Counted from the stretch's first letter, positions 8,445-35,502 are shown. The stretch: 64,000 nt of DNA from Hungatella sp. UBA3048 (GCA_002367105.1 DFCS01000044.1:124253-188252); one strand, 5' to 3'. Notes: a model not told the origin generated them from the sequence alone. Numbers and translations: made by a program.

Positions 8445-9158
8445 ATGAGTTTGATTTCTTTACAAGACGATTTAAAGAGTAATTCCTACCCGGGAAGAGG
8501 TATTATCATGGGAAAAACGCCGGATGGAACAAAGGCGGTTGCCGCTTATTTTATTATGGGAAGAAGCGATAACAGCCGCAACCGCGTATTCGTAGAGGAA
8601 GGGGAAGGGATCCGTACCCAGGCCTATGATCCCTCAAAGGTCACAGACCCCAGTCTTATTATTTATGCTCCGGTGAGGGTTATGGGGAATAAGACCATCG
8701 TGACAAACGGAGATCAGACCGATACCATTTATGAGGGAATGGATATACAACTGACGTTTGAACAGTCCTTACGGTGCCGGGAATTTGAACCGGATAGTCC
8801 TAATTATACCCCCCGTATTTCTGGGATCATGCATATAGAAGGCGGGCGCTTCAATTACGCCATGTCCATCATAAAGAGCAATCATGGGAATCCGGACTCC
8901 TGCAACCGTTATACCTTTGCTTATGATAATCCTGAGGCAGGTGAAGCCCATTTCATTCATACCTATATGCATGATGGAAGTCCTTTGCCAAGCTTTGAAG
9001 GGGAGCCAAAGCTTTCAGCGACCCTTGACGACTTGGATGAATTTACTGCCTTGATATGGGAAAACCTCCATGAAGAGAATAAAATTTCTCTCTTTGTAAG
9101 ATATATTGACATAGAATCCGGAGCTTATGAAACACGGATTGTAAATAAAAATCAATGA
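8445..9158 (+). CDS. purO: IMP cyclohydrolase, archaeal PurO-like
   Basis: ATG 8445 follows GAAAGGAG. The N-terminus ...NSYPGRGIIMGKTPDGTKAVAAYFIMGRSDNSRNRVF is typical of the PurO family. The gene is coupled to the downstream AICAR formyltransferase. Confidence 0.7.
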   Translation: MSLISLQDDLKSNSYPGRGIIMGKTPDGTKAVAAYFIMGRSDNSRNRVFVEEGEGIRTQAYDPSKVTDPSLIIYAPVRVMGNKTIVTNGDQTDTIYEGMDIQLTFEQSLRCREFEPDSPNYTPRISGIMHIEGGRFNYAMSIIKSNHGNPDSCNRYTFAYDNPEAGEAHFIHTYMHDGSPLPSFEGEPKLSATLDDLDEFTALIWENLHEENKISLFVRYIDIESGAYETRIVNKNQ

Positions 9159-9172
9159 CAGGAGTACAAAAG

Positions 9173-10351
9173 ATGAATGAGCTGGAATTAAAATATGGAT
9201 GTAACCCGAATCAGAAGCCCTCAAGGATTTTTATGCCAGGTGGGAATGAACTCCCCATTAAGGTCTTAAGCGGCCGGCCGGGATATATCAATTTCCTGGA
9301 TGCGTTTCATGGCTGGCAGCTGGTAAGAGAATTAAAGGAAGCGACCGGCCTTCCTGCGGCGGCTTCTTTTAAACATGTTTCTCCGGCAGGTGCCGCAGTG
9401 GGACTGCCTCTTGACCGGATACTTGCAAAGATATACAGGGTGGAGGATATGGAAGGGCTTTCTCCCATGGCCTGTGCCTATGCAAGGGCAAGAGGTGCTG
9501 ACCGTATGTCTTCCTTCGGTGACTTCATTTCCCTGTCAGATACCTGTGATACGGATACCGCCAGAATTATCAAAAGGGAAGTATCGGACGGCGTCATTGC
9601 CCCGGGGTATGAACCGGAAGCCCTGGATATCTTAAGGTCAAAGAAAAACGGCAATTACAACATCATTCAAATTGACCCGGATTACCAGCCAGAGCCGCTT
9701 GAGAGAAAACAGGTTTTTGGGATTATGTTTGAGCAGGGAAGAAATGAAGAGAAGATTCAGGGAGACCTTTTAAAGAATGTGGTGACAAAGAACCAGGATA
9801 TTCCCGGGTCAGCTAAAATTGACCTAATCATTTCTCTTATTACTTTAAAATATACCCAGTCCAATTCTGTCTGTTTTGCAAAGGGCGGACAAGCGATTGG
9901 GATCGGGGCTGGTCAGCAGTCCCGCATCCACTGCACAAGACTGGCAGGAAATAAGGCGGATAACTGGTTTCTTCGCCAGGCGCCTCAGGTCCTGGAGCTG
10001 CCGTTCTTGGAGGGGATCAGCCGGGCGGACCTGGACAATGCCGTTGATGTCTACATTGGAGAAGATTATATGGATGTCATTGCTGACGGCAGATGGGAAA
10101 ATATTTTCAGGGTAAAGCCAGCCGTCTTTACATGTGAAGAAAAGAAGGCCTGGCTTAGCCATCTGACTGAGGTTTCCCTGGGATCTGATGCATTCTTCCC
10201 ATTTGGCGATAACATTGACCGCGCATACAGAAGCGGTGTAAAGTACGTGGCCCAGCCTGGGGGATCGGTCCGTGATGACCAGGTAATTGAAACCTGTGAC
10301 CAATATGGGATGGCCATGGCTTTTACAGGGCTTCGTCTGTTCCATCATTAA
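9173..10351 (+). CDS. purH: AICAR formyltransferase (PurH formyltransferase domain only, no MGS/IMPCH domain)
   Basis: MNELELKYGCNPNQ...SFKHVSPAGAA...QPGGSVRDD... are characteristic AICARFT blocks. The start is taken at ATG 9173. Confidence 0.85.
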   Translation: MNELELKYGCNPNQKPSRIFMPGGNELPIKVLSGRPGYINFLDAFHGWQLVRELKEATGLPAAASFKHVSPAGAAVGLPLDRILAKIYRVEDMEGLSPMACAYARARGADRMSSFGDFISLSDTCDTDTARIIKREVSDGVIAPGYEPEALDILRSKKNGNYNIIQIDPDYQPEPLERKQVFGIMFEQGRNEEKIQGDLLKNVVTKNQDIPGSAKIDLIISLITLKYTQSNSVCFAKGGQAIGIGAGQQSRIHCTRLAGNKADNWFLRQAPQVLELPFLEGISRADLDNAVDVYIGEDYMDVIADGRWENIFRVKPAVFTCEEKKAWLSHLTEVSLGSDAFFPFGDNIDRAYRSGVKYVAQPGGSVRDDQVIETCDQYGMAMAFTGLRLFHH

Positions 10352-10451
10352 ATGGGAAAGGAAAATAAGTACCAGCCTATATTTTTTGTAAAAGCACTAT
10401 AAAGAGAAGGCCGGCATAAAATGAGAGTAAGTAAGTTTAAGGTGGCTTTCT

Positions 10452-10733
10452 TTGAAAACTTTTCCCAAACCTTTAACTGCGCGAGAAGAACGAGAGTGTC
10501 TGGAACGATACCAGGAAGGGGATCAGGAGGCGAGAGCCACACTCATCGAGCGAAATATGCGTCTGGTGGCACATGTGGCAAAAAAATATCAGAATACAGA
10601 TTATGATATGGAAGATCTTCTTTCCGTAGGTACCATAGGACTAATAAAAGCCGTCAATACCTTTCACCCGGACAGAGGCTCCAGACTAGCCACTTATGCG
10701 GCCAAGTGTGTGGAGAATGGTATCCTATCATAA
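10452..10733 (+). CDS. sigK: sigK 5' segment (sporulation sigma-K regions 1.2-2), interrupted after ...AKCVEN
   Basis: TTG 10452 lies 6 nt after AAGGTGG. FPKPLTAREERECLERY...IERNMRLVAHVAKKY...DLLSVGTIGLIKAVNTF...LATYAAKCVEN matches SigK and SigE-group sigma factors. After codon AAT (10716-10718) the frame runs into element DNA and stops at 10731-10733. Confidence 0.9.
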   Translation: MKTFPKPLTAREERECLERYQEGDQEARATLIERNMRLVAHVAKKYQNTDYDMEDLLSVGTIGLIKAVNTFHPDRGSRLATYAAKCVENGILS

Positions 10734-10756
10734 CGGCTCCAAACGGAGGAAAGCAA

Positions 10757-10801
10757 GAAACCGGTGTAAGCCTGCGGCAGCAGAGTGTACACCGGTTTCT
10801 G
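10757..10801 (-). terminator. Hairpin downstream of the small minus-strand ORF at the left end of the element
   Basis: A 13-bp stem AGAAACCGGTGTA / TACACCGGTTTCT closes a 19-nt loop. Confidence 0.45.
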
Positions 10802-10805
10802 ACGG

Positions 10806-10982
10806 TTATATGTTAAATTCTAAGATCATATCATACATTTCTTTTCCCGTGTTGCTTAAGTGGACAGAAGCCTTCTGCAATTCCGAAACAATTTCTTCAA
10901 TATTATTCCTGCATGTTTCAGGAATAATATTACCTTTCCGCCAATAATCCTCCGGTAAAGAATATTTAAATTTGTCCAACAT
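10806..10982 (-). CDS. Hypothetical small protein of 58 aa inside the element
   Basis: The internal ATG of track ORF 10806-11135 gives MLDKFKYSLPEDYWRKGNIIPETCRNNIEEIVSELQKASVHLSNTGKEMYDMILEFNI. It is divergent from the hydrogenase operon. There is no clear Shine-Dalgarno sequence, so support is weak. Confidence 0.3.
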   Translation of the reverse strand: MLDKFKYSLPEDYWRKGNIIPETCRNNIEEIVSELQKASVHLSNTGKEMYDMILEFNI

Positions 10983-11022
10983 ATATATTGATAAATAACA
11001 AATTTGAGAAGGGGGCAAGGGT

Positions 11023-11484
11023 ATGGTGAAGTTAATTGCTGTCGGCAATCGTTTTATGAAGGATGACGCCATAGCAATTAAAGCTGCCGAAATCTTGGAA
11101 GACCGGCTGATCCGCCAGGAGATCCATGTGATCATTGGTGAAACCGATTTTCAAAACTGCTTTTATTTACTGGATAAGGATGACTTTGTTTTCATCCTTG
11201 ATGCACTTTCTTCTGGAGCAGAGCCGGGAAGCGTTCATCTGACCAGACTTGAAGATGTGATGTCACAACCTTCCTTATTCTCCATGCAGCATGATTTGAG
11301 CATGGTGGAACTCATGAAGCTATATGGCAGTCAATTTAAGGGGTACCTGATGGGTATAGAAATCTGTGAAATCGGCTTTGGCCAGGAATTAAGCACTGTT
11401 TTAAGGGATAAATTGCCACAGATCTGCAGGGTAATTGAATGCGCAATTAATAAAATCATATCGGAGGAAATCACGAATGCATGA
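11023..11484 (+). CDS. Hydrogenase maturation endopeptidase (HyaD/HybD family)
   Basis: The product MVKLIAVGNRFMKDDAIAIKAAE...FILDAL...HDLS... shows the GNxxxxDD and (D)A...H pattern of the Ni-dependent C-terminal protease. The RBS is GGGGGCAAGGG. Confidence 0.8.
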   Translation: MVKLIAVGNRFMKDDAIAIKAAEILEDRLIRQEIHVIIGETDFQNCFYLLDKDDFVFILDALSSGAEPGSVHLTRLEDVMSQPSLFSMQHDLSMVELMKLYGSQFKGYLMGIEICEIGFGQELSTVLRDKLPQICRVIECAINKIISEEITNA

Positions 11485-11734
11485 TACGTTCCTAAATCAA
11501 AATATATATGAAGCGATAGTTGAAATATGCGGGGAGAATTTTATTGATAAGATTTTTTACTTGACCATCACGGTACATACAAACAGCCATATAAGTGAAG
11601 ACAGCCTCCGTGACTATTTTACAGAAAGAAATAATACGCTTATTGGAGACTGGACAAACATACAGGTTCTTAAACGGGAAATAGAGCCGCTTACTGCGGT
11701 TATAGACGAAATTGAAGGTGAGATATCACAATGA
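11477..11734 (+). CDS. Small HypA-like protein without a zinc-finger (tentative)
   Basis: ATG 11477 follows GGAGGAAAT. The 85-aa product starts with MHD, comparable to the MHE Ni-binding N-terminus of HypA. It has no CxxC...CxxC motif. Confidence 0.35.
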   Translation: MHDTFLNQNIYEAIVEICGENFIDKIFYLTITVHTNSHISEDSLRDYFTERNNTLIGDWTNIQVLKREIEPLTAVIDEIEGEISQ

Positions 11735-11799
11735 GAAAGGCCTGACTGCTGTCCGGCAAATGTATCAATCATTCAGTATTTTTTATGGGAGGTTTTTTC

Positions 11800-12270
11800 A
11801 TGGAATTAAATATGTTTTTGAATTACATCGGGAACTGCGTCAAGCACATAAATGAGGATATAGAGAGACTTCATTCCAACCAGTACAACAATAACGTTGT
11901 GTTGGATCATTTGAGCAGCGAAGTGATCATGCTGGAAAGTCATATCAAATATTTTAGTCAGTCAAATCAAGTGGATATGGAAGAAACACAATATCCGTAT
12001 CAGGCCATCCATGCAAATCAAACCGAGGAGGAAGTTCCAAGATACTTTACCCTGGAAGAGTTATCCAGATATGATGGAAAGAACGGAGCCCCTGCTTATG
12101 TAGCGGTAAACGGAGTGGTGTATGACGTGACAAATAATTCCGTCTGGAAGGGAGACAGCCATTTTGGTCTTAATCCTGGAAAAGATTTATCAGTTAATTT
12201 TGCAACATGCCATCCGGGAGCAATGGTCCTGACCAGATTACCGATCATCGGCTATTTGGCTACAGAGTAA
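11800..12270 (+). CDS. Cytochrome b5-like heme/steroid-binding domain protein
   Basis: ATG 11800 follows GGGAGG. The C-terminal block YFTLEELSRYDGKNGAPAYVAVNGVVYDVTNNSVWKGDSHFGLNPGKD is a typical cyt-b5/MAPR-like domain. Confidence 0.65.
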   Translation: MELNMFLNYIGNCVKHINEDIERLHSNQYNNNVVLDHLSSEVIMLESHIKYFSQSNQVDMEETQYPYQAIHANQTEEEVPRYFTLEELSRYDGKNGAPAYVAVNGVVYDVTNNSVWKGDSHFGLNPGKDLSVNFATCHPGAMVLTRLPIIGYLATE

Positions 12271-12272
12271 AG

Positions 12273-13181
12273 TTGGTGAAATATTTGGATTGCGGAAGCT
12301 TTGAATGTCCTTATCAGGAAAGCAGGCTAAAAACAACGGAAAGCCTTGTGAACAGGGTAAGGGATGAAATCGCTGGAGAGACGCGGCAAAAGCGGAATCT
12401 TGTCTGGCTTGAATTAAATGGCTGCACTGGTAATACCATTTCCCTTTTAGACGGACAAAATCCGGATTTTAAGTATCTGCTCACTCAAATGTCCAATATT
12501 ATATACAGCAACAGCCTGATGAATTCTTATGGAAACAAGGCTATGGATCAGCTGTTTGACGTCATAGGCAGTGATTATATCCTAGCTGTGGAAGGTGCAG
12601 TATCTTTAAAGGATAACGGTTCTTATAACGTCATCGGCCGGCACAACGGCAGGGAAATTACCGGGTATGAGGCGGTTAAAAGACTGGGAGAACAGGCTGC
12701 CCATGTGATTGCCGTGGGAGCCTGCGCTTCGCACGGAGGCGTGTCGGCGGCAAGGCCTAATCCATCCCAGTGTGTGGGAGTACAGGAGGTTTTGCAGAGA
12801 AAAGTGATTAAATTAACAGGCTGTCCATGTCATCCGGACTGGTTTATGGGCACTCTGGCCTATCTGCTATTATATGGGGAGCCCCCTCTTGATAGCAGGG
12901 ACCGTCCCTTGATGTTTTACAGCATTACCATTCACGACAGATGTCCAAGGAGATCTTATTTTGACAGCGGCATCTTTGCAACGAAGCTCGGACAGGAAAC
13001 CTGTATGTTCATGATGGGCTGTAAAGGCCCGATTACCCAGATCGACTGCCCCATTCGCCAATGGAACGGGCATGTCAACTGGCCTATAGGGGATGATTCG
13101 CCCTGCATCGGATGTGCTCAGTTTGGATTTCCTGATGCAATGGAGCCTTTTATCACCTATGACACCATGAGAGGGGAGTAA
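12273..13181 (+). CDS. [NiFe]-hydrogenase small subunit (no Tat signal visible)
   Basis: The motifs are LELNGCTGN, VGACASHGG, TGCPCHPDW, and the distal and medial cluster ligands IHDRCP...CMFMMGCKGP...CP...SPCIGC. The start is uncertain (TTG 12273 or GTG 12276, just after the upstream stop). No RRxFxK motif is present. Confidence 0.85.
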   Translation: MVKYLDCGSFECPYQESRLKTTESLVNRVRDEIAGETRQKRNLVWLELNGCTGNTISLLDGQNPDFKYLLTQMSNIIYSNSLMNSYGNKAMDQLFDVIGSDYILAVEGAVSLKDNGSYNVIGRHNGREITGYEAVKRLGEQAAHVIAVGACASHGGVSAARPNPSQCVGVQEVLQRKVIKLTGCPCHPDWFMGTLAYLLLYGEPPLDSRDRPLMFYSITIHDRCPRRSYFDSGIFATKLGQETCMFMMGCKGPITQIDCPIRQWNGHVNWPIGDDSPCIGCAQFGFPDAMEPFITYDTMRGE

Positions 13182-13183
13182 AT

Positions 13184-14560
13184 ATGGCGGAGAGAATAAC
13201 CATCAATCCTGTTACCCGAATCAGCGGTTTCATGGAAATTGATGCCGATATCGAAGAACAGTCAGTGGTGGATGCAAAAATGAGAGGTCTGATGTTCCGT
13301 GGATTTGAAAAAATGCTTCAGGGCAGAAGTCCTTTTGATGCTGTATATTTTACACAGCGCATCTGCGGTATCTGTTCAACCGCACATTCCATGGCTTCAG
13401 CTCTTGCCCTGGAAGAAGCATTGAACATTGTCCCCTCTGAACAGGGAAGGTATTTAAGGGACCTTCTTCATGCCTGCGAATTCCTGCAAAATCATCTAAG
13501 GCATTTTTACCAGTTTACCTTACCGGATTTTGTAAAGCTTCCTGAGGATTATCCACTGTTTAAGACAGATCACAATGATTACAGGCTGCCAAAGGACATA
13601 AACGATAAAATGGTGAACGATTACTTTGAATCCCTTCAGTTCAGCAGGGATGCGCATCAGATGCTGGCCATTCTTGGAGGTAAAGCTCCTCATAATCACG
13701 GAATATTCATTGGAGGTATCACATCACCGATAACAGCAGATAAGATCATTACCATAAAATCTATCCTATATGATATAGGACAATTTATTATTGAAAAAAT
13801 GGTTCCGGACGTATACACAATCGGAACCTTTTATCCGGAGTATTATCATTACGGAGGAGGCTATGGCAACTTACTGTCCTATGGGAGCTTTAACCATTAT
13901 AAAAATTTGGGGACGCTCTATGTGGATCCTCTTGTTTATTCCAATGGTCAGACATCTCCCTTTGATCCTGCCTTTATAACCCAGGAAGACGAATACGCCT
14001 GGTTCAACGAAAATGATGAACCGGACAGGAATAAACCCCAGGCATATTCCTGGATAAAAGCGCCGAGATACCATAATATCCCTTATGAGGTAGGGCCGTT
14101 GGCAAGACAGTGGCTCTCAGGGGAGTACAGAAATGGGATCTCTGCCATGGACCGGACCATTGCAAGAGTGCTGGAAACTAAGAAAATTGTGGAAATTATG
14201 CAAACCCTTATAGATAATCTGATCCCGGGAGTATCCATGCAGAGGGAATATGAGATTCCTGTGCAGGCATCGGGAAAAGGACTGGTGGATACGACACGGG
14301 GAGCGTTGGGCCATTGGCTGTATATTGACAACAGTAAGATAGCCTTTTACCAGATCATAACCCCGTCTGCATGGAATCTGTCAACACAGACAAATGGAAT
14401 GAAGGGAACCGGAGAACAGGCACTGATGGGGACACCCGTAAAAGTTGTAACAACGCCTGTGGAAATCGGAAGGATCATACGGTCTTTTGATCCCTGCGTG
14501 TCCTGTGCCACCCATGTCTTCTTAAGCGGGGAGTATATGAATACAATTCAGGTTGTGTGA
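13184..14560 (+). CDS. [NiFe]-hydrogenase large subunit
   Basis: The N-terminal Ni-Fe ligand motif is RICGICSTAHS and the C-terminal motif is DPCVSCATH. A 14-aa extension (VFLSGEYMNTIQVV) follows, consistent with endopeptidase processing. Confidence 0.9.
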   Translation: MAERITINPVTRISGFMEIDADIEEQSVVDAKMRGLMFRGFEKMLQGRSPFDAVYFTQRICGICSTAHSMASALALEEALNIVPSEQGRYLRDLLHACEFLQNHLRHFYQFTLPDFVKLPEDYPLFKTDHNDYRLPKDINDKMVNDYFESLQFSRDAHQMLAILGGKAPHNHGIFIGGITSPITADKIITIKSILYDIGQFIIEKMVPDVYTIGTFYPEYYHYGGGYGNLLSYGSFNHYKNLGTLYVDPLVYSNGQTSPFDPAFITQEDEYAWFNENDEPDRNKPQAYSWIKAPRYHNIPYEVGPLARQWLSGEYRNGISAMDRTIARVLETKKIVEIMQTLIDNLIPGVSMQREYEIPVQASGKGLVDTTRGALGHWLYIDNSKIAFYQIITPSAWNLSTQTNGMKGTGEQALMGTPVKVVTTPVEIGRIIRSFDPCVSCATHVFLSGEYMNTIQVV

Positions 14561-14709
14561 AGCTCTTCCACAAGAGCCTGTTTTTGGTCATTCGGGCAGG
14601 AAAGCTGCTGGATATATTGAAGGACAGCCTGACTATGCAGGAGTGCAGCTTTTTTTCTCAATTCTTTTCTGTCTTCTTCTGTTTTGGGCTGATATACTAT
14701 CATATTCAT
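14548..14709 (-). CDS. Hypothetical small protein of 53 aa next to the recombinase
   Basis: The product is MNMIVYQPKTEEDRKELRKKAALLHSQAVLQYIQQLSCPNDQKQALVEELHTT. A TATAAT box lies upstream on the minus strand. The gene is divergent from the recombinase and convergent with the hydrogenase large subunit. Confidence 0.35.
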   Translation of the reverse strand: MNMIVYQPKTEEDRKELRKKAALLHSQAVLQYIQQLSCPNDQKQALVEELHTT

Positions 14710-14815
14710 AACAAGGACCTGATATAGACTGTTATTATAATGTATGATGCCTCCCATGTCCTGTATGTTTGGATTAAGGGGCGGGCGCTATGCTTTAGTA
14801 AGGAGGAAGGTTTAG

Positions 14816-16501
14816 GTGGAAGCCGGGATAGAGCGGTTTGCGATTTATTCAAGAAAATCAAAATTTACCGGAAAAGGAGAGAGCATCGGAAATCAGATCG
14901 AGCTGTGCAGGCAATACATTTTTGCACATTATGGAGCGTGTTTCGCTGACAGCGCCTGTGTATACGAGGATGAGGGGTTTTCCGGAGGAAACCTTGAACG
15001 GCCTCAGTTTAAAGTCATGATGCAGGAAGCAAAAAAGAAGAAATTTACGGCAGTCGTATGCTACCGTCTTGACCGGATAAGCCGTAACATCGGTGATTTT
15101 GCAAATCTGATTGAAGAGCTTAATGAGCTCCATATTTCCTTTATCTCTATAAAAGAGCAATTTGACACATCCTCTCCCATGGGGCGGGCCATGATGTACA
15201 TAGCTTCTGTTTTCTCTCAGTTGGAGAGAGAGACAATCGCGGAACGCATCCGGGATAACATGCTGGAGCTCTCCAAAAGCGGAAGATGGCTGGGAGGAAA
15301 TACTCCTACGGGTTATACGTCAGAGAGTGTGTCCTCCGTGACCATAGACGGTAAGGTGAAAAAAGCATTTAAGCTTAAGATGATTCCGGATGAGGCAAAT
15401 CTGGTCAAGTTGATTTATGAGAAATTTTTAGAGACAGGATCACTGACTCAAACAGAAACCTATTTGCTCCAGAATGGCCATAGGACAAAATATGGCCGTT
15501 TATTCAGCCGTTTTGCGATAAAAGGAATATTGACCAATCCGGTTTACATGATAGCAGATCATGAAGCCTATGAGTATTTACGGAAAAAAAACGTGGATCT
15601 GTTTGCAGAAAGAGATGCCTTTGACGGAAACCATGGAGTGATAGCATATAACCGTACCCTTCAAAAGGCAGGAAAAACCCACGAGATGAAAGATATGGAA
15701 GAATGGATCGTGGCAGTTGGAAAGCATAAGGGAGTGATTTCCGGCTCCATGTGGGTCAAGGTTCAGCTGCAGCTGGATCAAAATAAATCAAAAAATTACC
15801 GGAAACCCCGCAGTAATGTAGCGTTGCTGTCCGGAATCCTCTTTTGCGGCGGCTGCGGCGGTTATATGCGGCCAAAGCTGTCCGGCCGGTACAATGACGA
15901 AGGGGAACAGATCTATTCTTATTTATGTACCATGAAGGAAAAAAGCCGTATGAAATGCTGCGGAATGAAGAATGTTAATGGAAATATGCTGGATCAGATG
16001 GTCCTGGAGGAAATCAAAAAGATATCTGTGGATTGGGGTGAATTTCAAAAGCAGCTTTGCCGGAACAAAAGGGCAGTGGAAGAAAGCAAAGAGGAAGCGG
16101 AATGGGATATATCCCGTTTAAAAGATGAACGGAAGAATATGGAAGAAGAAATAACCGGACTGGTGGCCTCCCTTGGAAAAGCCGGTGGGACCGGGGCGGA
16201 AGGATATATCATACAGCAGATCGAAGGGCTCCATAAAAGAAAAGGAGAAATGGAGCAGCGGTTATGGGAGCTTACCCTTGATGAAGGAAATAAGGAGCTT
16301 TCCGATACGGAATTACAGTTTATTAAGCAGACCCTGTCTTCCTTTCAACATGTGATCGGCCTCATGGATGTCCGGCAAAGACGGGCGGCGGTCCGCACTT
16401 TTGTGGATAAGGTCATATGGGATGGTGAGAATGTTCATCTGTACCTGTTAGGCTCGAAGGTGCCTGAGTTACCAGAGCCGCAAGGTGACCATAGCAAATG
16501 A
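14816..16501 (+). CDS. spoIVCA: Large serine recombinase (SpoIVCA-like)
   Basis: GTG 14816 follows AGGAGGAAGG. The N-terminal resolvase domain carries the catalytic motif AIYSRKS. The recombinase domain, a Cys cluster (CGGCGG...C...CC) and a coiled-coil follow. The stop TGA (16499-16501) spans the right junction. Confidence 0.9.
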   Translation: MEAGIERFAIYSRKSKFTGKGESIGNQIELCRQYIFAHYGACFADSACVYEDEGFSGGNLERPQFKVMMQEAKKKKFTAVVCYRLDRISRNIGDFANLIEELNELHISFISIKEQFDTSSPMGRAMMYIASVFSQLERETIAERIRDNMLELSKSGRWLGGNTPTGYTSESVSSVTIDGKVKKAFKLKMIPDEANLVKLIYEKFLETGSLTQTETYLLQNGHRTKYGRLFSRFAIKGILTNPVYMIADHEAYEYLRKKNVDLFAERDAFDGNHGVIAYNRTLQKAGKTHEMKDMEEWIVAVGKHKGVISGSMWVKVQLQLDQNKSKNYRKPRSNVALLSGILFCGGCGGYMRPKLSGRYNDEGEQIYSYLCTMKEKSRMKCCGMKNVNGNMLDQMVLEEIKKISVDWGEFQKQLCRNKRAVEESKEEAEWDISRLKDERKNMEEEITGLVASLGKAGGTGAEGYIIQQIEGLHKRKGEMEQRLWELTLDEGNKELSDTELQFIKQTLSSFQHVIGLMDVRQRRAAVRTFVDKVIWDGENVHLYLLGSKVPELPEPQGDHSK

Positions 16502-16865
16502 AATCCTAATGCTTCTTCGTGCGAACAAGAAATATTCAAAAGAGGTTTCTTTGTTTGAACCCATTGGCGTAGACAAGGATGGAGAGACTGTAAGTTTAGT
16601 AGATGTCATTGAAATGGAAAATAAGGAGACTCTGGAATCTATTATTTTAAAACAGGATATTAAGGAACTGTATGAGGCCTTTGACAGTTGTCTTAAGGAT
16701 AATGAAAAAACCATAATCGGAATGAGGTACGGTCTGCATGGAGGAAAAGAGTATACGCAGCGGGAGATCGCGGATGTCATGGGAATATCCAGATCCTACG
16801 TATCCAGGCTTGAAAAAAAAGCTTTGGAGCGGTTAAGAGACGAACTTAAAAAGAATTGTATTTAA
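16500..16865 (+). CDS. sigK: sigK 3' segment (regions 3-4)
   Basis: EILMLLRANKKYSKEVSLFEPIGVDKDGE...YTQREIADVMGISRSYVSRLEKKALERL contains the region 4.2 HTH. The segment is in frame with the 5' segment once 10720-16500 is removed. Track ORF 16485-16865 begins inside the recombinase 3' end. Confidence 0.9.
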   Translation, partial: EILMLLRANKKYSKEVSLFEPIGVDKDGETVSLVDVIEMENKETLESIILKQDIKELYEAFDSCLKDNEKTIIGMRYGLHGGKEYTQREIADVMGISRSYVSRLEKKALERLRDELKKNCI

Positions 16866-16910
16866 AAAGAAGCATTATTAAATCGTCCCATCTCTGATGG
16901 TTGAGTAAAA

Positions 16911-16951
16911 AGTCTGGGAGGCCCGATAAACAGGGCGTTCCGGACTTCTTT
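16911..16951 (+). terminator. Probable sigK terminator
   Basis: The imperfect 14-bp stem AGTCTGGGAGGCCC / GGGCGTTCCGGACT is followed by TCTTT. Confidence 0.5.
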
Positions 16952-17168
16952 GCTGTCATAAAACAATGCGTAAGCCGGTTAGGGTGTTCTTATAAAGACT
17001 TGCTGCAGATTGTAATGAATATGGTTGACAAAAAAACAAAATCATAATACTATGTAAAAAAGGATATTTCATACTAAACATATATGTATTCTTTAATATA
17101 AGAAATGCGTACAATGCGCAGGACAAATATCTGAGAAAATTTTTGCTTATATAAGGAGGAGGACAATT

Positions 17169-18851
17169 ATGAAAAAAGTAGTCTTTCAAAAACTGCATAA
17201 GGTAATTGGAGCTATGCTTGTTTTCGGCATGGTGGTATCTCTTGCGGCCTGTGCAAAGTCAAATTCCAATCCGGGAGCTGAGAATCCGGCTAAGGGAAAT
17301 ACGGCAGAGAATAATTCTGCAAAGGGTGAGAATACGGAGGATAAAATCCTTAATATTGGAATGACCGATTCGATCAGCAGCGTAAACCCACTGTTGATGG
17401 ATGCAACTGAGATCATGAAGACCTCCACGGCAATGGAATTCCTGCCTTTAGTAGAATTAAACAGCAATCTGGAGTTTGAGGGTAGGCTGGCTTCTTCTAT
17501 TACTACGGAAGACAATATACATTTTACAGTGAATATTGATCCCAATGCAAGCTGGTCCGACGGTCAGGCCGTAACTGCGGATGACGTCGTATACACCGTT
17601 CTTAAGCTCTCAAGCCCCGTCCGTGCCAATGCAAGCATGGCACTCTATGCCATTGAAGGTGTGGGCGACGACGGTTTTTCAGAGGCGGGAGCGACGGAGT
17701 TATCAGGTGTTAAGGCAATCGACAATAAAACCGTCGAATTCACGACCAAATATCAGATGGCCCTTACCACCTTCCAGAATACATATGGACGCTATATACT
17801 GACACTGCCCAAACATGTTCTTGAGAGCGTAGCGGATGAGGACCTGGCAGGTTATGACTGGTTCAATGCTCCGACGGTAGTTAACGGGCCCTACCGCATC
17901 ACAGCCGTTGATTTGCAGCATTATGTGTCCTATGAGGCAAATGATACATACTGGAAGGGTGTTCCAAAGATTAACAGGATCAATATCAAGATTGTACCTG
18001 CGGCACAATTGCTGACCGGGCTGCAATCAGGAGAGATTGATTTTGTGCAGCAGACCACCGGTAACATCCTGCAGGAGGATTATGCCAGCGTAGAAGCCCT
18101 TGCCAATGTGACGGTCAACTATGGTGCTCCTGTTATCAACCAGTCGATCTTCTTTAATACCACCACGGTAACGGATCCCCGCATCCGCCAGGCGATTCTT
18201 TATGGAATTGACCGCCCGTCCATAATAACAGGACTGCTAAACGGAAAAGGTGAAGTGGTTGACGGCTTCTTATCCAGTGCAGGACCATTCTATGACGAGA
18301 GCCTGACGCCCACTGTTTATGATCCGGAAAAAGCGAAAGAATTGGTCGCCCAGGCAGTCGCAGACGGTTGGGATGCTTCAAAGACATTAAACTTCTATGT
18401 AAACAGTGGAGATTCCACTTTCTGCCAGGCCGCAGATTATATTGCTGCGAAGCTGCAGGAAATCGGACTAAAGATCCAGGTGACGACCGTTGACTTATCC
18501 AGCTTAATGACTAAGGCGGGAAATAAGGATTTCGATTTGCTGGCAGTACAGTATACCTATGCACCGGTAGATCCTTATCCGGACGTTAACTGGTTATTAT
18601 CTGCGGACGGTTGGACCGGCTATGTGAATGATGCCGTAACACAGGCCCTGGCGGCGACCCAGGCTACCAGTGACGTTAATGAAATCAAGAAGGAATATCG
18701 AAAAATCGATACCGTTATGCAGCAGGAGGCCCCAATGATTTCTACCTATATCATAAGTGCAATGGGAGCTGTGAATAAAAGGGTGGAGAATGCGACGCCG
18801 GATGTATATGGCTCTTTTAATAATATCAACGAATGGGATGTGACACAATGA
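17169..18851 (+). CDS. ABC transporter substrate-binding lipoprotein, family 5 (peptide/nickel type)
   Basis: The lipobox is LAACAKS. The 560-aa product has Opp/Dpp/Nik-like architecture. The RBS is AAGGAGGAGG. Confidence 0.8.
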   Translation: MKKVVFQKLHKVIGAMLVFGMVVSLAACAKSNSNPGAENPAKGNTAENNSAKGENTEDKILNIGMTDSISSVNPLLMDATEIMKTSTAMEFLPLVELNSNLEFEGRLASSITTEDNIHFTVNIDPNASWSDGQAVTADDVVYTVLKLSSPVRANASMALYAIEGVGDDGFSEAGATELSGVKAIDNKTVEFTTKYQMALTTFQNTYGRYILTLPKHVLESVADEDLAGYDWFNAPTVVNGPYRITAVDLQHYVSYEANDTYWKGVPKINRINIKIVPAAQLLTGLQSGEIDFVQQTTGNILQEDYASVEALANVTVNYGAPVINQSIFFNTTTVTDPRIRQAILYGIDRPSIITGLLNGKGEVVDGFLSSAGPFYDESLTPTVYDPEKAKELVAQAVADGWDASKTLNFYVNSGDSTFCQAADYIAAKLQEIGLKIQVTTVDLSSLMTKAGNKDFDLLAVQYTYAPVDPYPDVNWLLSADGWTGYVNDAVTQALAATQATSDVNEIKKEYRKIDTVMQQEAPMISTYIISAMGAVNKRVENATPDVYGSFNNINEWDVTQ

Positions 18852-19849
18852 CACCGCTGCTGGAAGTAGATTCGCTGGAAATGGCGTTCTCCACCGGTGC
18901 CGGTGATATCAAATGCTTAGACAGGGTCAGCCTTCATGTAAATCAAGGTGAGATCCTGTGCATCGTTGGAGAATCCGGCTCCGGCAAGAGCGTTACCCTT
19001 CTGTCAGTCATGGGTCTGCTTGGAGAAAATGGTAAAATCACAGGAGGCAAGGTGGTCTTTGACGGGCAGGAACTGCTTAATCTGCCGGAAGAGGAATTGG
19101 ACCGTATCCGTGGCAGTAAGATGACCATGATCTTTCAGGACGCCATGGCCAGCTTAAATCCGTTATTCACCATTGGGAACCAGATCATGGAAGCCATGGG
19201 GATACATATGAACCTGGACCGGAAAACAGCGAAGGAACGGGCACTGCTCCTCCTTGATAAGGTGGGGCTTCCGGATCCTTCTTCTATTATGAGCAAATAT
19301 CCGCATACACTGTCAGGAGGTATGCGGCAGCGGGCAATGATCGCCATGGCGCTTGCCTGTAATCCGAAGCTTCTCATTGCGGATGAGCCAACCACTGCGC
19401 TGGATGTTACGATTCAGGCACAGATTATGGAGCTCTTAAGGAACTTACGTGAGGAGCTTCATATGTCAATTATTTTAATTACCCATGACATGGGACTTGT
19501 AGCTGAAATGGCGGACCGGGTTATGGTTATGTATGCCGGACAGATTGTGGAGGAGGCAGGTGTTCTTGATTTATTTAAAAAACCGGGGCACCCTTATACA
19601 CAGGCTCTTCTGAAATCCATTCCCAGTATCAGAGATAAAGAAGAGAGAGAACTGTTGACGATTGAGGGTGCTGTTCCGGAGTTTTACGGTGAGATAACCG
19701 GCTGCCGCTTTGCAAACCGCTGCCCGTATATGACCGATGGCTGTGATCTGGAGCAAAGTTTGGTTGAAATAGAAGATAGTCACGGGACAAGATGCTGGCG
19801 TGCGGAAGAAATCCGGGAGAGGATGACGCAGGCATCAGGAAGGAATTAA
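18848..19849 (+). CDS. Oligopeptide/dipeptide ABC ATP-binding protein (OppD/DppD-like)
   Basis: ATG 18848 overlaps the upstream stop (ATGA). Motifs are GESGSGKS, LSGGMRQR and LLIADEPTTALD, plus the C-terminal oligopeptide-ABC extension. Confidence 0.85.
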   Translation: MTPLLEVDSLEMAFSTGAGDIKCLDRVSLHVNQGEILCIVGESGSGKSVTLLSVMGLLGENGKITGGKVVFDGQELLNLPEEELDRIRGSKMTMIFQDAMASLNPLFTIGNQIMEAMGIHMNLDRKTAKERALLLLDKVGLPDPSSIMSKYPHTLSGGMRQRAMIAMALACNPKLLIADEPTTALDVTIQAQIMELLRNLREELHMSIILITHDMGLVAEMADRVMVMYAGQIVEEAGVLDLFKKPGHPYTQALLKSIPSIRDKEERELLTIEGAVPEFYGEITGCRFANRCPYMTDGCDLEQSLVEIEDSHGTRCWRAEEIRERMTQASGRN

Positions 19850-19852
19850 CAA

Positions 19853-20872
19853 ATGCAAAAGGAACGACAACCTCTGGCAGAGATAAAGGGATTGAAAAAA
19901 TATTATCCGGTTCGTGACGGAATTATTCCACATACAGTTGGATTTATCCATGCTGTGAACGGTGTGGACTTTGAACTATTTCCGGGAGAAACTCTGGGAC
20001 TGGTAGGTGAATCCGGCTGCGGCAAATCCACCATTGGGCGGCAGCTGGCCGCGTTAGAAACTCCCACAGAGGGCGGCATTGTCTATGAAGGATATCCGTT
20101 TACGGACCGGTCAGCGGCTGGAATGAGGCAAATCCGTACCCAGATACAGATGGTATTTCAAGATCCTTATACCTCCCTTAATCCGAAAAAACGTATTTTT
20201 GAAACTCTATCTTATCCAATGCTGTATCATGGAGTCACTACAAAACAGAATGTCCATAGGGAGGTTGACCGTCTGCTTGATATGGTGGGACTCCCGAAAA
20301 ATACGAAGGGGCGTTATCCTCATGAGTTCTCCGGCGGGCAACGGCAAAGGATTGGAATCGCAAGAGCGCTTTCTCTTAACCCCAGACTGGTCATCTGCGA
20401 TGAGCCGGTCAGCGCCCTTGATGTATCAATACAGGCTCAGATTTTAAATCTGCTACGTGATCTGCAAAAGGAACTAAAGCTTACCTATCTGTTTATTGGC
20501 CACGGTCTGGATGCGGTCAAATACATCAGTGACCGGATTGCCGTCATGTATCTGGGGAAGATTGTGGAGCTTGCGGATGCAAAGGAACTGTTTGAAAATC
20601 CGGTGCATCCTTATACGCAGGCATTATGCAGCGCAGCACCGATTCCCGATCCCGAGGCCAGAGGGAGAAAAAGAGTGATATTGCAGGGCGAACTGCCTTC
20701 CAATAAGGATCTTCCTTCCGGCTGCCATTTTCACAGCCGGTGCCCCTACGCCATAGAGGAATGCAAACGATCGGAGCCGTCGCTGATCCAGGTCCAGCCA
20801 GGAAGCGGGCATTTGGCGGCCTGTCCGGTGCTGATCCAGGGTAAAAGGCCAAAGGAGGATGCGGATGCTTAA
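19853..20872 (+). CDS. Oligopeptide/dipeptide ABC ATP-binding protein (OppF/DppF-like)
   Basis: Motifs are [17 protein letters not shown] and [12 protein letters not shown]. Confidence 0.85.
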
Positions 20873-21809
20873 ATATATTATCAAGCGTATTCTTATTGCT
20901 ATCCCGGTCCTGATTGGCATAACCGTAATTGATTTTCTGATCATGACTATGGTAGGAAGTCCATTGGAACTGCTCCAGGGCCCCAGAGTGTCCGATGCGG
21001 CCATCGAAACCAAAAGAATCGCTTTAGGCCTTAATAAGCCTGTCTATGTACAATACTGGATCTGGCTGACGAATCTTCTTCAGGGCAACATGGGATATTC
21101 CATGAAGAGTTTCCAGCCGGTAAGCCAAATGATTAAAACCTATATCGGGCCAACGTTACTGCTCATGTCCGTCTCGTTATTTGTCAGTATGCTGATTGCG
21201 GTACCGGCAGGAATCTATAGCGCGGTCCACAAGTATACACCGCAGGACTATACCGTAGTCACGCTTTCCTTCCTTGGAAGCAGCGTTCCCAGTTTTTTCC
21301 TGGCATTGGTGCTGATTTATTTTTTCACTGTCAGACTTGGCTGGCTGCCATCCAGCGGCATGTATACCCTGGGAGCGCAGAAACGTTCCATAGACGTCCT
21401 CAGGCATATGATCATGCCTGTGATTGTATTGGCAACTTCCATGGCGGGGACCAATATCCGCTATATCCGCAGCGCCATGCTTGAGATACTTCAGATGGAT
21501 TACCTGCGAACGGCAAGGGCAAAGGGAATTGGCCGCTTTCTGGTGATTAATAAGCATGCGCTTCGCAATGCGTTAATTCCGGTCATTACCGTATTCGGGA
21601 TGCATATACCGATCTTGTTTGGCGGAGCCATCATCATAGAACAGGTATTTTCCTGGCCAGGGCTCGGCATGATGACCATGAGTGCAATTATCAGCAGAGA
21701 TTATCCGGTCATTATGGGCGTCTGTCTGATGTCCGCCATTGTTGTTCTGGTGGCAAACCTGCTGACAGATATCATCTACGCACTGGTAGATCCGACGATT
21801 ACGTATTAA
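20865..21809 (+). CDS. ABC permease (OppB/DppB-like)
   Basis: ATG 20865 lies 6 nt after AAAGGAGG. The N-terminus [25 protein letters not shown] is typical, and an EAA-like loop is present (...YLRTARAKG...). Confidence 0.85.
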   Translation: MLKYIIKRILIAIPVLIGITVIDFLIMTMVGSPLELLQGPRVSDAAIETKRIALGLNKPVYVQYWIWLTNLLQGNMGYSMKSFQPVSQMIKTYIGPTLLLMSVSLFVSMLIAVPAGIYSAVHKYTPQDYTVVTLSFLGSSVPSFFLALVLIYFFTVRLGWLPSSGMYTLGAQKRSIDVLRHMIMPVIVLATSMAGTNIRYIRSAMLEILQMDYLRTARAKGIGRFLVINKHALRNALIPVITVFGMHIPILFGGAIIIEQVFSWPGLGMMTMSAIISRDYPVIMGVCLMSAIVVLVANLLTDIIYALVDPTITY

Positions 21810-21825
21810 AAGCAGGAGAAAATGA

Positions 21826-22698
21826 ATGAATAGAGATAAAACAATAAACAGTGAAGATAATGCATACCGCAATACGGTAATGAGGCGGTTCTTAAAACAT
21901 AAATTGGCTGTGGCCAGCACCGTATTCCTGGCTATCATCCTCCTATGTGCGCTGCTGGCGCCTATTCTTTCGCCTTATGACCCCAATAAGGTGGTCGGTG
22001 GATTCAGCGATCCGCCTTCCTTAAAGAACCTGCTTGGAACCGACCAGGTGGGAAGGGATGTATTAAGCAGAATGCTATACGCCGTCCGAATCTCATTGTT
22101 GGTAGGATTTGCCGCTACAGCTGTATCCACGGTGGTCGGTGTGGTTTTAGGCCTGGTATCCGGGTTTTTTGGAGGAATCCTTGATATGGTAATCATGCGG
22201 TTTACTGATATGGTCATGTCCTTTCCTTATATCCTGCTTGTATTAGTTTCTGCCGCGATCTTTCGCCCGGGCCTTTTAAATATTATTCTGATTCTCGGTT
22301 TTGTTGACTGGCCCGGAATTGCCCGGCTGGTCAGAGGGAATGTTTTATCCATCCGGGAAATGAATTTTATCCAGGGGGACCGCGTTGCTGGAATGCCAAA
22401 GCGCTATATCCTGTTTTCTGAAATACTTCCCAATACGGTCGCACCCATTCTGGTATATGCGACTTCTGTTATCGCCATATCGATGCTAGATGAAGCAGCC
22501 CTAAGCTTTCTTGGTATGGGTATTCAACCGCCTCAGTCCAGTCTTGGCAATATGTTAAATGGAGCCCAATCCATCTCCATCCTCACTTCCAAGCCATGGC
22601 TGTGGGTACCGCCGGGACTGATGATCATATTGCTGGTCGTCAGTATTAATTTCATCGGAGACGCTTTAAGAGATGCTTTCGATCCTTCGGGAAATTAG
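21826..22698 (+). CDS. ABC permease (OppC/DppC-like)
   Basis: The 290-aa product has blocks typical of the family: ...LLGTDQVGRDVLSR... and ...FIQGDRVAGMP... Confidence 0.85.
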   Translation: MNRDKTINSEDNAYRNTVMRRFLKHKLAVASTVFLAIILLCALLAPILSPYDPNKVVGGFSDPPSLKNLLGTDQVGRDVLSRMLYAVRISLLVGFAATAVSTVVGVVLGLVSGFFGGILDMVIMRFTDMVMSFPYILLVLVSAAIFRPGLLNIILILGFVDWPGIARLVRGNVLSIREMNFIQGDRVAGMPKRYILFSEILPNTVAPILVYATSVIAISMLDEAALSFLGMGIQPPQSSLGNMLNGAQSISILTSKPWLWVPPGLMIILLVVSINFIGDALRDAFDPSGN

Positions 22699-26498: not shown

Positions 26499-26645
26499 AT
26501 GAAAAAAGTAAAGAATAATCCAAGAGTGGTCAGTATAATTAGCCATATGGCACTAGGTTTTTCTGTAATAGCAGCAAATACACTCTGCTGTGCTATTTAT
26601 CATCAACCAACAAAACCTGATTTGAAAAAATTGAGAAAGTTCTGA
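26499..26645 (+). CDS. agrD: AgrD-like autoinducing peptide precursor (48 aa)
   Basis: ATG 26499 follows TTAGGAGG. MKKVKNNPRVVSIISHMALGFSVIAANTLCCAIYHQPTKPDLKKLRKF has an amphipathic leader, a Cys-containing core, and a QP..P charged tail. The stop overlaps the agrB start (TGATG). Confidence 0.7.
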   Translation: MKKVKNNPRVVSIISHMALGFSVIAANTLCCAIYHQPTKPDLKKLRKF

Positions 26646-27223
26646 TGGAAAGGCTGGCAGAAAGATTAACTCATTATATTCTTTCTTATGAAGGGATGAA
26701 AGAGGAAGATTACAATATATATAAGTATGGAATACAAACAGGGTTAGAGATGTTTTTGTGTTTATTTATAAGCACAATACTAGCGATATACCTTAAATCG
26801 CTAGTAGAATTTTTAATATTTATAATTGTATTTTTTGCTTTAAGATCTTATGTTGGCGGGTTTCATTTAAAACACTTTACCTCATGCTGCTTTTGTTCTT
26901 GCAGTGTAATTTGTGCAGTATTGATTATTTCAAAAAAGTTTGAACCGTCTGTATATGTTTCAATGTTTGTGACGGTAGGTTGTATGTGGACAATCTATAG
27001 GTTAGCACCTATTACAACGAAGAAACTCATATTAGATGATAGTGAGATATCCTATTTTTCTTTTAAAAGAAAGCGAATCATGTTATGTATCATTGTTTTA
27101 GATATAATATTCGGAATCTTAGGTTTGGGTAGGTATGTATCATTGATTATGTATATTTTAGTCGTAATTTTAAACTCTATGATTATGGAATTGTTTAATG
27201 ATAAGAAATGTAGAAATACATAG
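26645..27223 (+). CDS. agrB: AgrB-family AIP-processing membrane peptidase
   Basis: The 192-aa polytopic product contains ...LRSYVGGFHLKHFTSC..., the conserved R-x-x-GG-H and Cys region of AgrB. Confidence 0.8.
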   Translation: MERLAERLTHYILSYEGMKEEDYNIYKYGIQTGLEMFLCLFISTILAIYLKSLVEFLIFIIVFFALRSYVGGFHLKHFTSCCFCSCSVICAVLIISKKFEPSVYVSMFVTVGCMWTIYRLAPITTKKLILDDSEISYFSFKRKRIMLCIIVLDIIFGILGLGRYVSLIMYILVVILNSMIMELFNDKKCRNT

Positions 27224-27421
27224 AGGGGTCCGTGTTCTATTAATTAAAATATGTTAATGATAGATGATTCCACATATCTGTTATTATATTTTTGTAGTGG
27301 GATAGAAGATGATAATACTCGCTATAAGAGATTATAACAGAAAGGAGTGTTGCCATTGCAGTATTTAAAAATAATTAGGCTATGGTAAAAAAAATAAAGA
27401 TGATTTAGAAAGGAGAAGAAT

Positions 27422-27607
27422 ATGGGAGATTATAGTGAATTTGATCTGGATTTAAAGAAGAAAACAACAAGAGCGGGTAATGGCGGTAATGGAGGTAATG
27501 GTGGAGAAGGAGGAGGAGGAACTTCTCAGGCTACAACAGTAACTATAACTATTGGTATGACTACATCAAAAAATTGCAGTGCCCCTACTTGTACATGCTT
27601 CTGTTAA
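27422..27607 (+). CDS. Class I lanthipeptide precursor (LanA)
   Basis: The RBS is GAAAGGAGAAG. The leader contains the FDLD box (F-N/D-L-D). The C-terminal region TSQATTVTITIGMTTSKNCSAPTCTCFC has 13 Ser/Thr and 4 Cys. The gene lies directly upstream of lanB. Confidence 0.8.
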   Translation: MGDYSEFDLDLKKKTTRAGNGGNGGNGGEGGGGTSQATTVTITIGMTTSKNCSAPTCTCFC

Positions 27608-27687
27608 GTTGTAGCTGTAAGCTCATTTTTGATAACCAAAGTGGTTAGATCTACACGTAAAAATTATAAATCTAGATAATGAGCTGC

Positions 27688-27724
27688 ATAGGGCGTACTT
27701 AAAACTATATTAAGTACGCCCTAT
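27688..27724 (+). terminator. Intercistronic hairpin between lanA and lanB (putative leaky terminator or processing site)
   Basis: A perfect 15-bp stem ATAGGGCGTACTTAA / TTAAGTACGCCCTAT is present, with only a weak T-tract after it. Confidence 0.5.
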
Positions 27725-27754
27725 TATAAGTATTGAGAATATGAGGGGGTAAAT

Positions 27755-30958: not shown

Positions 30959-30975
30959 GGTGAAAAATAATTATA

Positions 30976-32748: not shown

Positions 32749-32770
32749 CAGATCACCACAAGGAGTATAT

Positions 32771-34096: not shown

Positions 34097-34141
34097 TGGA
34101 ACAAAAATGAAATCACATTACTGAGAGGCAGGGATTTAATA

Positions 34142-35362: not shown

Positions 35363-35502
35363 ATTGTAGGTGGCTGTCACACGAAGTATTTTAAAGCAGT
35401 AGAAATCGAAAAATATAACTATTAATTCTGCTTAGAAGATAATCAGAGATGAATATTATTATCATGCCTATGGCTTGATAATATGAAGAGACGGGGAGGC
35501 GG

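Follow-up and report, generated by a model that had tools for sequence, protein, structure and literature searches.

Introduction

Two known skin (sigK-intervening) elements interrupt the sporulation gene sigK of Bacillus subtilis and of Clostridioides difficile. The B. subtilis element, which is served by SpoIVCA and Skr, is 48 kb long and prophage-like; its reported core is AATGA (PMC10745906), its large serine recombinase gene, spoIVCA, adjoins the 5' fragment of sigK in the opposite orientation, and Skr is encoded by a 64-amino-acid (aa) open reading frame (ORF) that overlaps the start of spoIVCA (PMC6957869). The C. difficile element is 14.6 kb long and likewise prophage-like, lies further 3' in sigK, at a site that C. 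tetani and phage phiS63 also use, and employs the recombinase CD1231 together with a separate small factor, CD1234, which gives directionality; excision is there a main control on SigK activity. Here we describe an insert of 5,781 bp within sigK of Hungatella sp. UBA3048. All coordinates refer to a 64-kb window, the part of the host genome that was examined. The insert is, very probably in our judgement, a skin-type element of Lacrimispora species, and it carries genes for a [NiFe]-hydrogenase.

The locus shares with B. subtilis skin the interruption of sigK, a large serine recombinase encoded at the edge of the insert and an AATG(A) core within imperfect inverted repeats. However, it is 5.8 kb long and has no phage genes, its recombinase gene is co-oriented with sigK and lies directly upstream of the 3' fragment, and its SigK has no pro-sequence, whereas the B. 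subtilis protein does. The lack of a pro-sequence and the co-oriented recombinase are both features of C. difficile. An earlier note on this DNA, made from the sequence alone, had ascribed to the locus the architecture of these known elements; this stands for the interruption, the edge recombinase and the core, but the layout is not that of B. subtilis. We take the B. subtilis element to lie at the homologous ENE codons, judging from tabulated fragment lengths (Galperin et al. 2022) and from the B. subtilis SigK sequence.

Galperin et al. 2022 catalogued 15 skin elements of 2.6-48 kb, in which the edge recombinase usually lies directly upstream of the 3' fragment. Compact examples are those of Sulfobacillus (2.6 kb), Alkaliphilus (3.5 kb), Pelotomaculum (4.2 kb) and R. 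cellulolyticum (6.6 kb), which resemble the present element in being small and not obviously phage-derived and have no cargo in common with one another. None of the 15 hosts belongs to the Lachnospiraceae, and the word hydrogenase is absent from the text and supplements of that survey. Thus, where the earlier note had set the element apart by its small size and different cargo, the 5.8 kb and the non-phage cargo hold, but compactness had already been published for skin elements of 2.6-6.6 kb. Full-text literature searches returned no paper that links a skin element with Lacrimispora or with hydrogenase. New here are a host among the Lachnospiraceae, a hydrogenase as cargo and, for its operon, a sigma-E-like promoter.

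More distant parallels exist. The gin element of gerE in B. cereus ATCC 10987 has been described as a non-prophage element that is removed in sporulation to rebuild a sporulation gene, although its target differs. Programmed excision in a terminally differentiated cell is also known for the fdxN element (XisF) and the hupL element of Anabaena, which we cite as analogies and not as members of the same class. The hupL case involves a [NiFe] hydrogenase gene. There, however, the hydrogenase gene is the one interrupted, whereas here it is cargo, and phylum and developmental programme differ.

Results

The two halves of sigK abut exactly

The sigK fragments and the attachment sites that bound the insert are as follows.

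10452-10719, plus strand: sigK 5' fragment, 89 codons plus 1 nucleotide (nt); Pfam Sigma70_r2
16501-16865, plus strand: sigK 3' fragment, 2 nt plus 120 codons and a stop; regions 3 and 4
10697-10739: attL, with core AATG at 10716-10719 and element-side arm GTATCCTATCATAACGGCTC at 10720-10739
16475-16525: attR, with element-side arm GAGCCGCAAGGTGACCATAGCA at 16475-16496 and core AATG at 16497-16500

The earlier note had read two ORFs 5.8 kb apart as collinear halves of one gene, split by an insert with an AATG core at its bounds and a large serine recombinase at its right end, and had held that removal of 10720-16500 would rejoin the frame; alignment with intact SigK and comparison with uninterrupted relatives had been set beforehand as tests. 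The core is present at both ends, the recombinase (561 aa, with Resolvase, Recombinase and Zn_ribbon_recom domains) is where it had been placed, and both tests came out as that reading required.

The 5' fragment starts at a TTG codon (10452), which has AGGTGG as its ribosome-binding site and an in-frame stop shortly before it. When integrated, its ORF (10452-10733, plus strand) reads ...LATYAAKCVEN and then runs through four foreign codons, GILS, to a stop. The break in sigK is at 10719, where the DNA reads GTGGAGAATG followed by GTATCC, and the gene resumes at 16501, where ATAGCAAATG is followed by AAATCC; the ORF on that side (16485-16865, plus strand) reads MTIAN and then EILMLLRANKK.... 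In-silico removal of 10720-16500 (5,781 bp) gives 633 nt, or 210 codons in frame, through ...AKCVENEILMLLR.... The fused 210-aa SigK matches NCBIfam NF004471 with 293 bits (cutoff 252) in one stretch, residues 3-208 on model positions 27-231, and since this alignment is uninterrupted the two halves abut without gap or overlap. The split-sigK observation is therefore confirmed as correct to the base, far beyond chance.

The same logic holds across the family. When the elements of 11 related split loci are cut out in silico at the AATG core, each locus gives a SigK of 210 aa joined identically at ...VENEILM..., and the N-terminal fragment is 98-100% identical in amino-acid sequence among family members. 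Across split loci, the ratio of nonsynonymous to synonymous substitution rates (dN/dS) is 0.010 for the N-terminal half and 0.019 for the C-terminal half; such strong purifying selection on both halves shows that the interrupted gene is in use and is not a decaying pseudogene. The G+C content of the insert, 43.9%, is the same as that of its flanks.

Close relatives have an uninterrupted sigK. In Hungatella hathewayi, where the protein is 89% identical to the fused SigK, the gene reads GTGGAAAATGAAATCCTC at the corresponding position, and a scan of one genome per species found intact sigK in many other Lachnospiraceae. The intact genes of Hungatella and these other Lachnospiraceae mark the empty site. 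No intact sigK was found among the ranked matches listed for the complete genome of Lacrimispora sp. HJ-01.

Alignment of the fused SigK begins at position 25 of TIGR02846, so that the protein is without the first 24 to 26 positions of two SigK models, where a pro-sequence would be. Given this offset, and given the TTG start with an in-frame stop upstream, the fused gene encodes a SigK without a pro-sequence.

Attachment sites and the predicted crossover

The AATG core is common to attL, attR, attB and attP. In 11/11 elements attP has its best dyad centred on the AA of AATG, with 12-16 of 24 flanking positions complementary, and the summed dyad score is 154 at this centre against 109 at the next best. 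The site is an imperfect inverted repeat around a non-palindromic 2-bp crossover that it has in common with attB. A dyad so centred is the pattern that would be expected of a serine integrase cutting the central dinucleotide.

The element-side arm of attR, which becomes the left arm of attP, falls within the 3' end of the recombinase gene, whose TGA stop (16499-16501) straddles the crossover and takes its last base from sigK. In the excised circle this TGA becomes TGG, and the ORF lengthens from 561 to 593 aa, on into 10720-10815 and through the hairpin at the left end. Since family members with an A after AATG retain the stop, this read-on in the circle is probably incidental.

Fused and circular forms in public assemblies

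The predicted attP, composed of the left side of attR and the right side of attL, was scanned as an exact pattern against public collections. One match was returned, the metagenome contig POVV01001975.1 (L081); the scan of viral contigs with the same pattern gave none. L081 is a circularly permuted contig of 5,756 bp without sigK flanks. Over its full length it is 94.6% identical to the window element, and the predicted attP junction, GAGCCGCAAGGTGACTATAGCAAATG joined to GTATCCTATCATAACGGCTCC, closes it. Its termini share a 23-bp direct overlap, which indicates a circle of ~5,733 bp, close to the 5,737-bp integrated element of L057.

Two further assemblies bear on the fused form. L045, a metagenome-assembled genome (MAG), is 99% identical to the window over SigK residues 72-210 and carries the predicted fused junction exactly; its contig starts 55 nt before the base at which fused and integrated sequences diverge. 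L087, a contig of 7,700 nt, consists of the element with exactly 55 nt of sigK on each side. Both contig layouts are what a k=55 de Bruijn assembler would put out if fused and integrated forms co-occurred in a sample. In L065 (1-10018), two tandem copies with a period of 5,070 bp are joined by an attP-type junction and are identical over the 4,948 bp compared, save for the first base past the core. Each carries genes for an AraC regulator, an alpha-galactosidase-like enzyme, a cytochrome b5-like protein, a small ORF (55 aa) and the recombinase; the contig is either a true tandem insertion or the product of an assembler threading through a circular form. These records show that attB and attP products exist in nature, in related strains and samples.

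The recombinase and a small divergent ORF

Three features make up the right part of the insert.

14816-16501, plus strand: large serine recombinase, 561 aa; Pfam Resolvase, Recombinase and Zn_ribbon_recom; predicted catalytic Ser15 in YSRKS
14548-14709, minus strand: 53-aa ORF, divergent from the recombinase gene; weak directionality-factor candidate
14710-14815: divergent control region between the two, with conserved alignment blocks TTATTATAATGTATGAT and GTCCnGTATGTTTG

The protein has every part of a large serine recombinase: the predicted Ser nucleophile lies in an N-terminal resolvase domain, after which come a recombinase domain and a zinc ribbon (PF00239, PF07508 and PF13408, all above cutoffs). 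It matches the PHROG 95 integrase (E = 7.6e-107) and, in the PDB, TP901-1 and SprA. Its nearest phage relatives are clostridial phage integrases at 39-46% identity, and it scores 113 bits against the XisF model NF041201, below the cutoff of 375. No second copy was found in the window.

The 53-aa ORF lies between the large-subunit and recombinase genes, on the opposite strand. It is open in 14/14 family members with a median dN/dS of 0.17, and is a real gene; of the genes that do not belong to the hydrogenase operon, it and the recombinase gene alone occur in every family member. AlphaFold2 predicts a two-helix fold (predicted local distance difference test, pLDDT, 91.8). The protein had no match in Pfam, PHROGs or the PDB, including a profile search of the PDB, and Foldseek with the predicted model returned non-specific helical matches only. 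An exhaustive HMMER search gave 159 related clusters of small proteins at 50% identity. These are uncharacterised proteins of 50-70 aa with the consensus MNxIVHYP...L.CP.EQK (L088-L095), and homologues are seen in mobile elements, next to genes for Rep, a relaxase or a primase, or else immediately 5' of an AAA_14/DUF4143 ATPase.

As a recombination directionality factor, the 53-aa protein is possible but unsupported. No homologue of CD1234 was identified in the element. Skr overlaps the start of spoIVCA in B. subtilis, whereas this element has no such conserved ORF; an overlapping ORF of that kind was considered as the directionality factor and rejected, as the reading frames vary across the family.

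The cargo is a hydrogenase operon

Six genes of the insert, the recombinase included, lie on the sigK strand, and the 53-aa ORF on the other. Those of the cargo are listed below.

11023-11484, plus strand: HycI/HybD-type hydrogenase maturation endopeptidase, 153 aa; Pfam HycI; TIGR00072 81 bits, above cutoff
11477-11734, plus strand: conserved ORF of 85 aa (MHDTF start); longest ORF from 11435 (85-99 aa)
11785-12270, plus strand: cytochrome b5-like haem/steroid-binding domain protein, 161 aa; Pfam Cyt-b5
12273-13181, plus strand: [NiFe]-hydrogenase small subunit; Pfam Oxidored_q6 and NiFe_hyd_SSU_C; TIGR00391 above cutoff
13184-14560, plus strand: [NiFe]-hydrogenase large subunit, 458 aa; Pfam NiFeSe_Hases 329 bits

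The large subunit has the motifs RICGICSTAH and DPCVSCATH and a C-terminal tail for protease cleavage. The longest ORF of the small subunit runs from 12207, with TTG 12273 or GTG 12276 as its likely start. Tested for group 1 (periplasmic uptake), the operon has both signature motifs (RxCGxCxxxH and DPCxxCxxH), the small subunit and the maturation protease, and the closest solved structures are the Desulfovibrio [NiFeSe] enzymes. Given that the small-subunit N-terminus shows no RRxF motif, and hence no twin-arginine signal, and that the hydrogenase scores below the cutoffs of curated equivalog models, we call the enzyme cytoplasmic and related to group 1, but stop short of assigning it to that group.

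Homologous operons occur in ordinary chromosomal settings without recombinase or sigK, from which it follows that the element captured an operon of this kind. Those of Anaerotignum and Petroclostridium are full, with genes for the protease, the 85-aa protein, HypFCDE, the cytochrome b5-like protein and both subunits; that of Pseudobacteroides is shorter, and in it just protease and cytochrome b5-like genes accompany those of the subunits. As the cytochrome b5-like gene is found in 3/3 and the 85-aa gene in 2/3 of these chromosomal operons, both belong to the hydrogenase operon. The former always lies immediately 5' of the small subunit, also outside sigK, and is retained in minimal elements. 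The latter, as a gene of 85-86 aa, is found at this place in the loci of Anaerotignum, Petroclostridium and the L. saccharolytica type, and sits beside the maturation protease in most operons of the type, Pseudobacteroides being without it. The 85-aa ORF had no significant match in Pfam, NCBIfam or PHROGs, nor did a 109-aa ORF in Pfam or PHROGs. The N-terminus of the 85-aa protein resembles the nickel-binding MHE start of HypA. The protein matches no HypA model and is without the zinc-site cysteines.

None of hypF, hypC, hypD and hypE was found in the window, and Pfam and PHROGs scans found no transfer, replication or phage genes in the insert. On the minus strand, the ORF at 10806-11135 is unlikely to be a gene, since no family matches it and the partial matches that tblastn gave fall on the protease gene, which overlaps it.

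In Pseudobacteroides cellulosolvens (L097 1-15600), the homologous hydrogenase operon lies among spore genes, namely a gerA-type germinant receptor operon, a CotJC-type Mn-catalase gene and GerAC fragments. This setting hints that the hydrogenase family may be spore-associated more widely.

Promoters and RNA signals

Three signals were recognised near the left end of the element.

10388-10422, plus strand: putative sigK promoter, GTAAAAGCAC-N17-CATAAAAT; mother-cell sigma-K/sigma-E type
10756-10800, plus strand: strong hairpin just inside the left end, 3' of the truncated sigK ORF
10960-10988, plus strand: putative sigma-E-like promoter of the hydrogenase operon, GAATATT-N13-CATATATAT; -35 ATA

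The putative sigK promoter (-35 AC, -10 CATAnnnT) is kept nearly base for base in 16 loci, split and intact, and the mother-cell promoter consensus described for C. difficile and B. subtilis is of the same -35 AC, -10 CATA type (PMC3789822). The region 10720-10830 has a minimum free energy of -37.1 kcal/mol (z-score -4.2), and the hairpin, which is found too in L057, L081 and L082, may stop transcripts that read through from the sigK promoter, as a terminator or insulator. An Rfam scan of 9000-18000 found no RNA family.

Among the non-coding bases 5' of the protease gene, GAATATT-N13-CATATATAT is the most conserved block throughout the family members that bear a hydrogenase. Its spacer has TGTCCAA, and the reverse complement of this, GGACAA, is similar to a SpoIIID box. 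No match to the strict sigma-E pattern (CATAYANT) was obtained; the relaxed form alone matches, with 3 occurrences in the 64 kb against 0.71 expected. No sigma-E-like motif was found 5' of the Anaerotignum operon, and the upstream regions of Petroclostridium and Pseudobacteroides are ambiguous. From the conserved block we infer a sigma-E-type promoter for the hydrogenase operon. A mother-cell hydrogenase has a precedent in C. difficile, where an iron hydrogenase depends on sigma-E and is repressed by SpoIIID (PMC3789822).

On the minus strand of the divergent control region lies the best sigma-70-like site of the whole region, AGGACA-17-TATAAT (10/12; 14762-14734), a promoter-like site of the 53-aa ORF that fits sigma-A as well as sigma-E or sigma-K.

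Carriers, sizes and cargo variants

When the fused SigK was scanned against one genome per species, assemblies of Lacrimispora and its allies were matched at this locus by the C-terminal half alone. The N-terminal half lies 2.6 to >10 kb upstream, with relatives of the recombinase and of the 53-aa ORF between the halves. The sigK site is occupied in at least 13 assemblies, those of the window and of L057, L058, L061, L064, L066, L067, L069, L072, L075, L079, L082 and L087. L. xylanisolvens is a carrier directly, and L. saccharolytica, L. indolis and L. celerecrescens are so by the names on closely related proteins; in one contig, with a large subunit that NCBI assigns to L. saccharolytica, sigK holds the same hydrogenase element.

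Within an overall range of 2.6 to >10 kb, element size is 2.6-2.85 kb in L069, L072, L075 and L079, 5,737 bp on the complete chromosome of Lacrimispora sp. HJ-01 (L057, NZ_CP173277.1), 5,781 bp in the window and 7.5-8.1 kb in L058, L061, L064, L066 and L067. The minimal elements hold just the cytochrome b5-like gene, the 53-aa ORF and the recombinase. Cargo elsewhere includes an AraC regulator and an alpha-galactosidase-like enzyme (L064, L065, L066) or a chemoreceptor (L058), and L068 adds hypF, hypD and hypE. The Lacrimispora family differs from the catalogued skin elements in this turnover of cargo around a fixed recombination unit. The recombinase diverges in step with the purH-like gene of the flank (Spearman 0.85, p = 0.004, n = 9), which fits long vertical residence in the genus.

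Four Lachnospiraceae-type sigK contigs (L004, L043, L067, L070) sit in MAGs labelled Bacteroides thetaiotaomicron, Paludibacteraceae, Paenibacillaceae and Desulfovibrionaceae, and L067 holds a full skin-hydrogenase element. These odd labels are probably binning errors.

Discussion

Based on these observations, we consider it very probable that the insert is a skin-type element of Lacrimispora species that is excised to rebuild sigK. In the integrated state, only a 93-aa N-terminal stub of SigK could be made. The recombinase of the element (14816-16501) would recombine attL with attR at the AA of the AATG core, releasing a circle with attP and leaving an in-frame sigK of 210 codons. Excision would presumably be timed to sporulation and confined to the mother cell, and would presumably need a directionality factor. 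Since SigK has no pro-sequence, the conserved mother-cell-type promoter together with excision would control its activity, as in C. difficile. The element would be inherited vertically in the genus and act as a cargo platform, its cargo here being the predicted cytoplasmic [NiFe]-hydrogenase operon.

Several observations weigh against this proposal. Close relatives with an uninterrupted sigK likewise have no pro-sequence, and the element is thus not indispensable for timing in the clade. No second sigK was found within the 64-kb window, though one could lie elsewhere in the genome. The attB and attP forms in metagenomes could stem from vegetative excision or from mixed strains and not from mother cells. 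As to directionality, no conserved Skr-like ORF overlaps the start of the recombinase gene, where frames are not kept across the family, and no serine recombinase lies within 5-10 kb of four distant homologues of the 53-aa ORF, which leaves its directionality role speculative.

The strongest rival is that the insert is an ordinary integrative island which targets sigK, its excision being sporadic or stress-driven and its effect either that of a population-level on/off switch for sporulation or a mere burden. The metabolic cargo here, like the AraC regulator with alpha-galactosidase or the chemoreceptor of other members, would suit such an island, as would the occurrence of the 53-aa ORF family in mobile elements and a promoter-like site of that ORF open to sigma-A; the metagenome attB and attP forms, for their part, are silent on cell type. 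However, the co-divergence of recombinase and flank across ~10 species argues for vertical residence and not repeated transfer, genes for transfer, replication or phage functions are missing from the insert, purifying selection on the two sigK halves is extreme in each carrier, and the experimentally tested skin elements in the cited literature all excise during sporulation. We therefore regard an ordinary island as unlikely.

That sigK is a dead gene, in a lineage that lost sporulation and in which the insertion became a fixed disruption, would agree with the physical interruption of the gene and with the habit of annotators, who usually call such genes pseudogenes. Given that dN/dS is 0.01-0.02 for both halves, that the frame is exactly restored in 11/11 loci, that the att sites and a full-length recombinase are conserved, and that circular and fused forms exist, we hold this to be highly improbable, and indeed already effectively refuted. 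An assembly artefact joining unrelated DNA inside sigK has next to no probability, for although L065 shows that assemblers can thread an element twice, nothing specific speaks for it here, and the same structure recurs with identical junction logic and divergent sequences in independent assemblies, including the complete chromosome L057.

The skin-type reading can be taken further. The element may be a domesticated mother-cell expression cassette, such that the cytoplasmic hydrogenase, with its cytochrome b5-like partner, is made specifically in the sporulating mother cell from the conserved sigma-E/SpoIIID-like promoter, before excision or from the excised circle, and the 53-aa ORF founds a new family of directionality factors. 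We offer this extension tentatively and think it rather doubtful. If it were true, DNA excision would link late sporulation control to H2 and redox metabolism. That the hydrogenase cargo has a sigma-E-like promoter suggests a connection of sporulation with H2 metabolism, one that can be tested.

Developmentally excised sigK elements would, on the skin-type reading, extend to the Lachnospiraceae, where they are seen in gut and other metagenomes. The family offers a natural series in which one recombination unit occurs with differing cargo in elements of 2.6 to >10 kb, and is thus suited to dissecting the minimal needs of a skin element, while its short and well-defined attB and attP could serve as a compact serine-integrase system. 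For annotation, sigK "pseudogenes" that flank a hydrogenase operon in these genomes should be treated as functional split genes.

Other features of the window

Between sigK and the PRD antiterminator/phosphotransferase system genes lies a five-gene operon for an oligopeptide ATP-binding cassette (ABC) transporter (17169-22698), which is missing at that position in the L. saccharolytica-type locus (L082 12882 onward). Further along, 26645-37728 looks like a class I lanthipeptide cluster with the following genes.

26645-27223: AgrB-like protein
27755-30958: LanB dehydratase
30976-32748: ABC transporter
32729-34096: LanC cyclase
34142-35362: GT2 glycosyltransferase
35655-36965, on the strand opposite to the other genes of the cluster: GHKL sensor kinase

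The pairing of an Agr-type peptide-processing gene with lanthipeptide enzymes is unusual.

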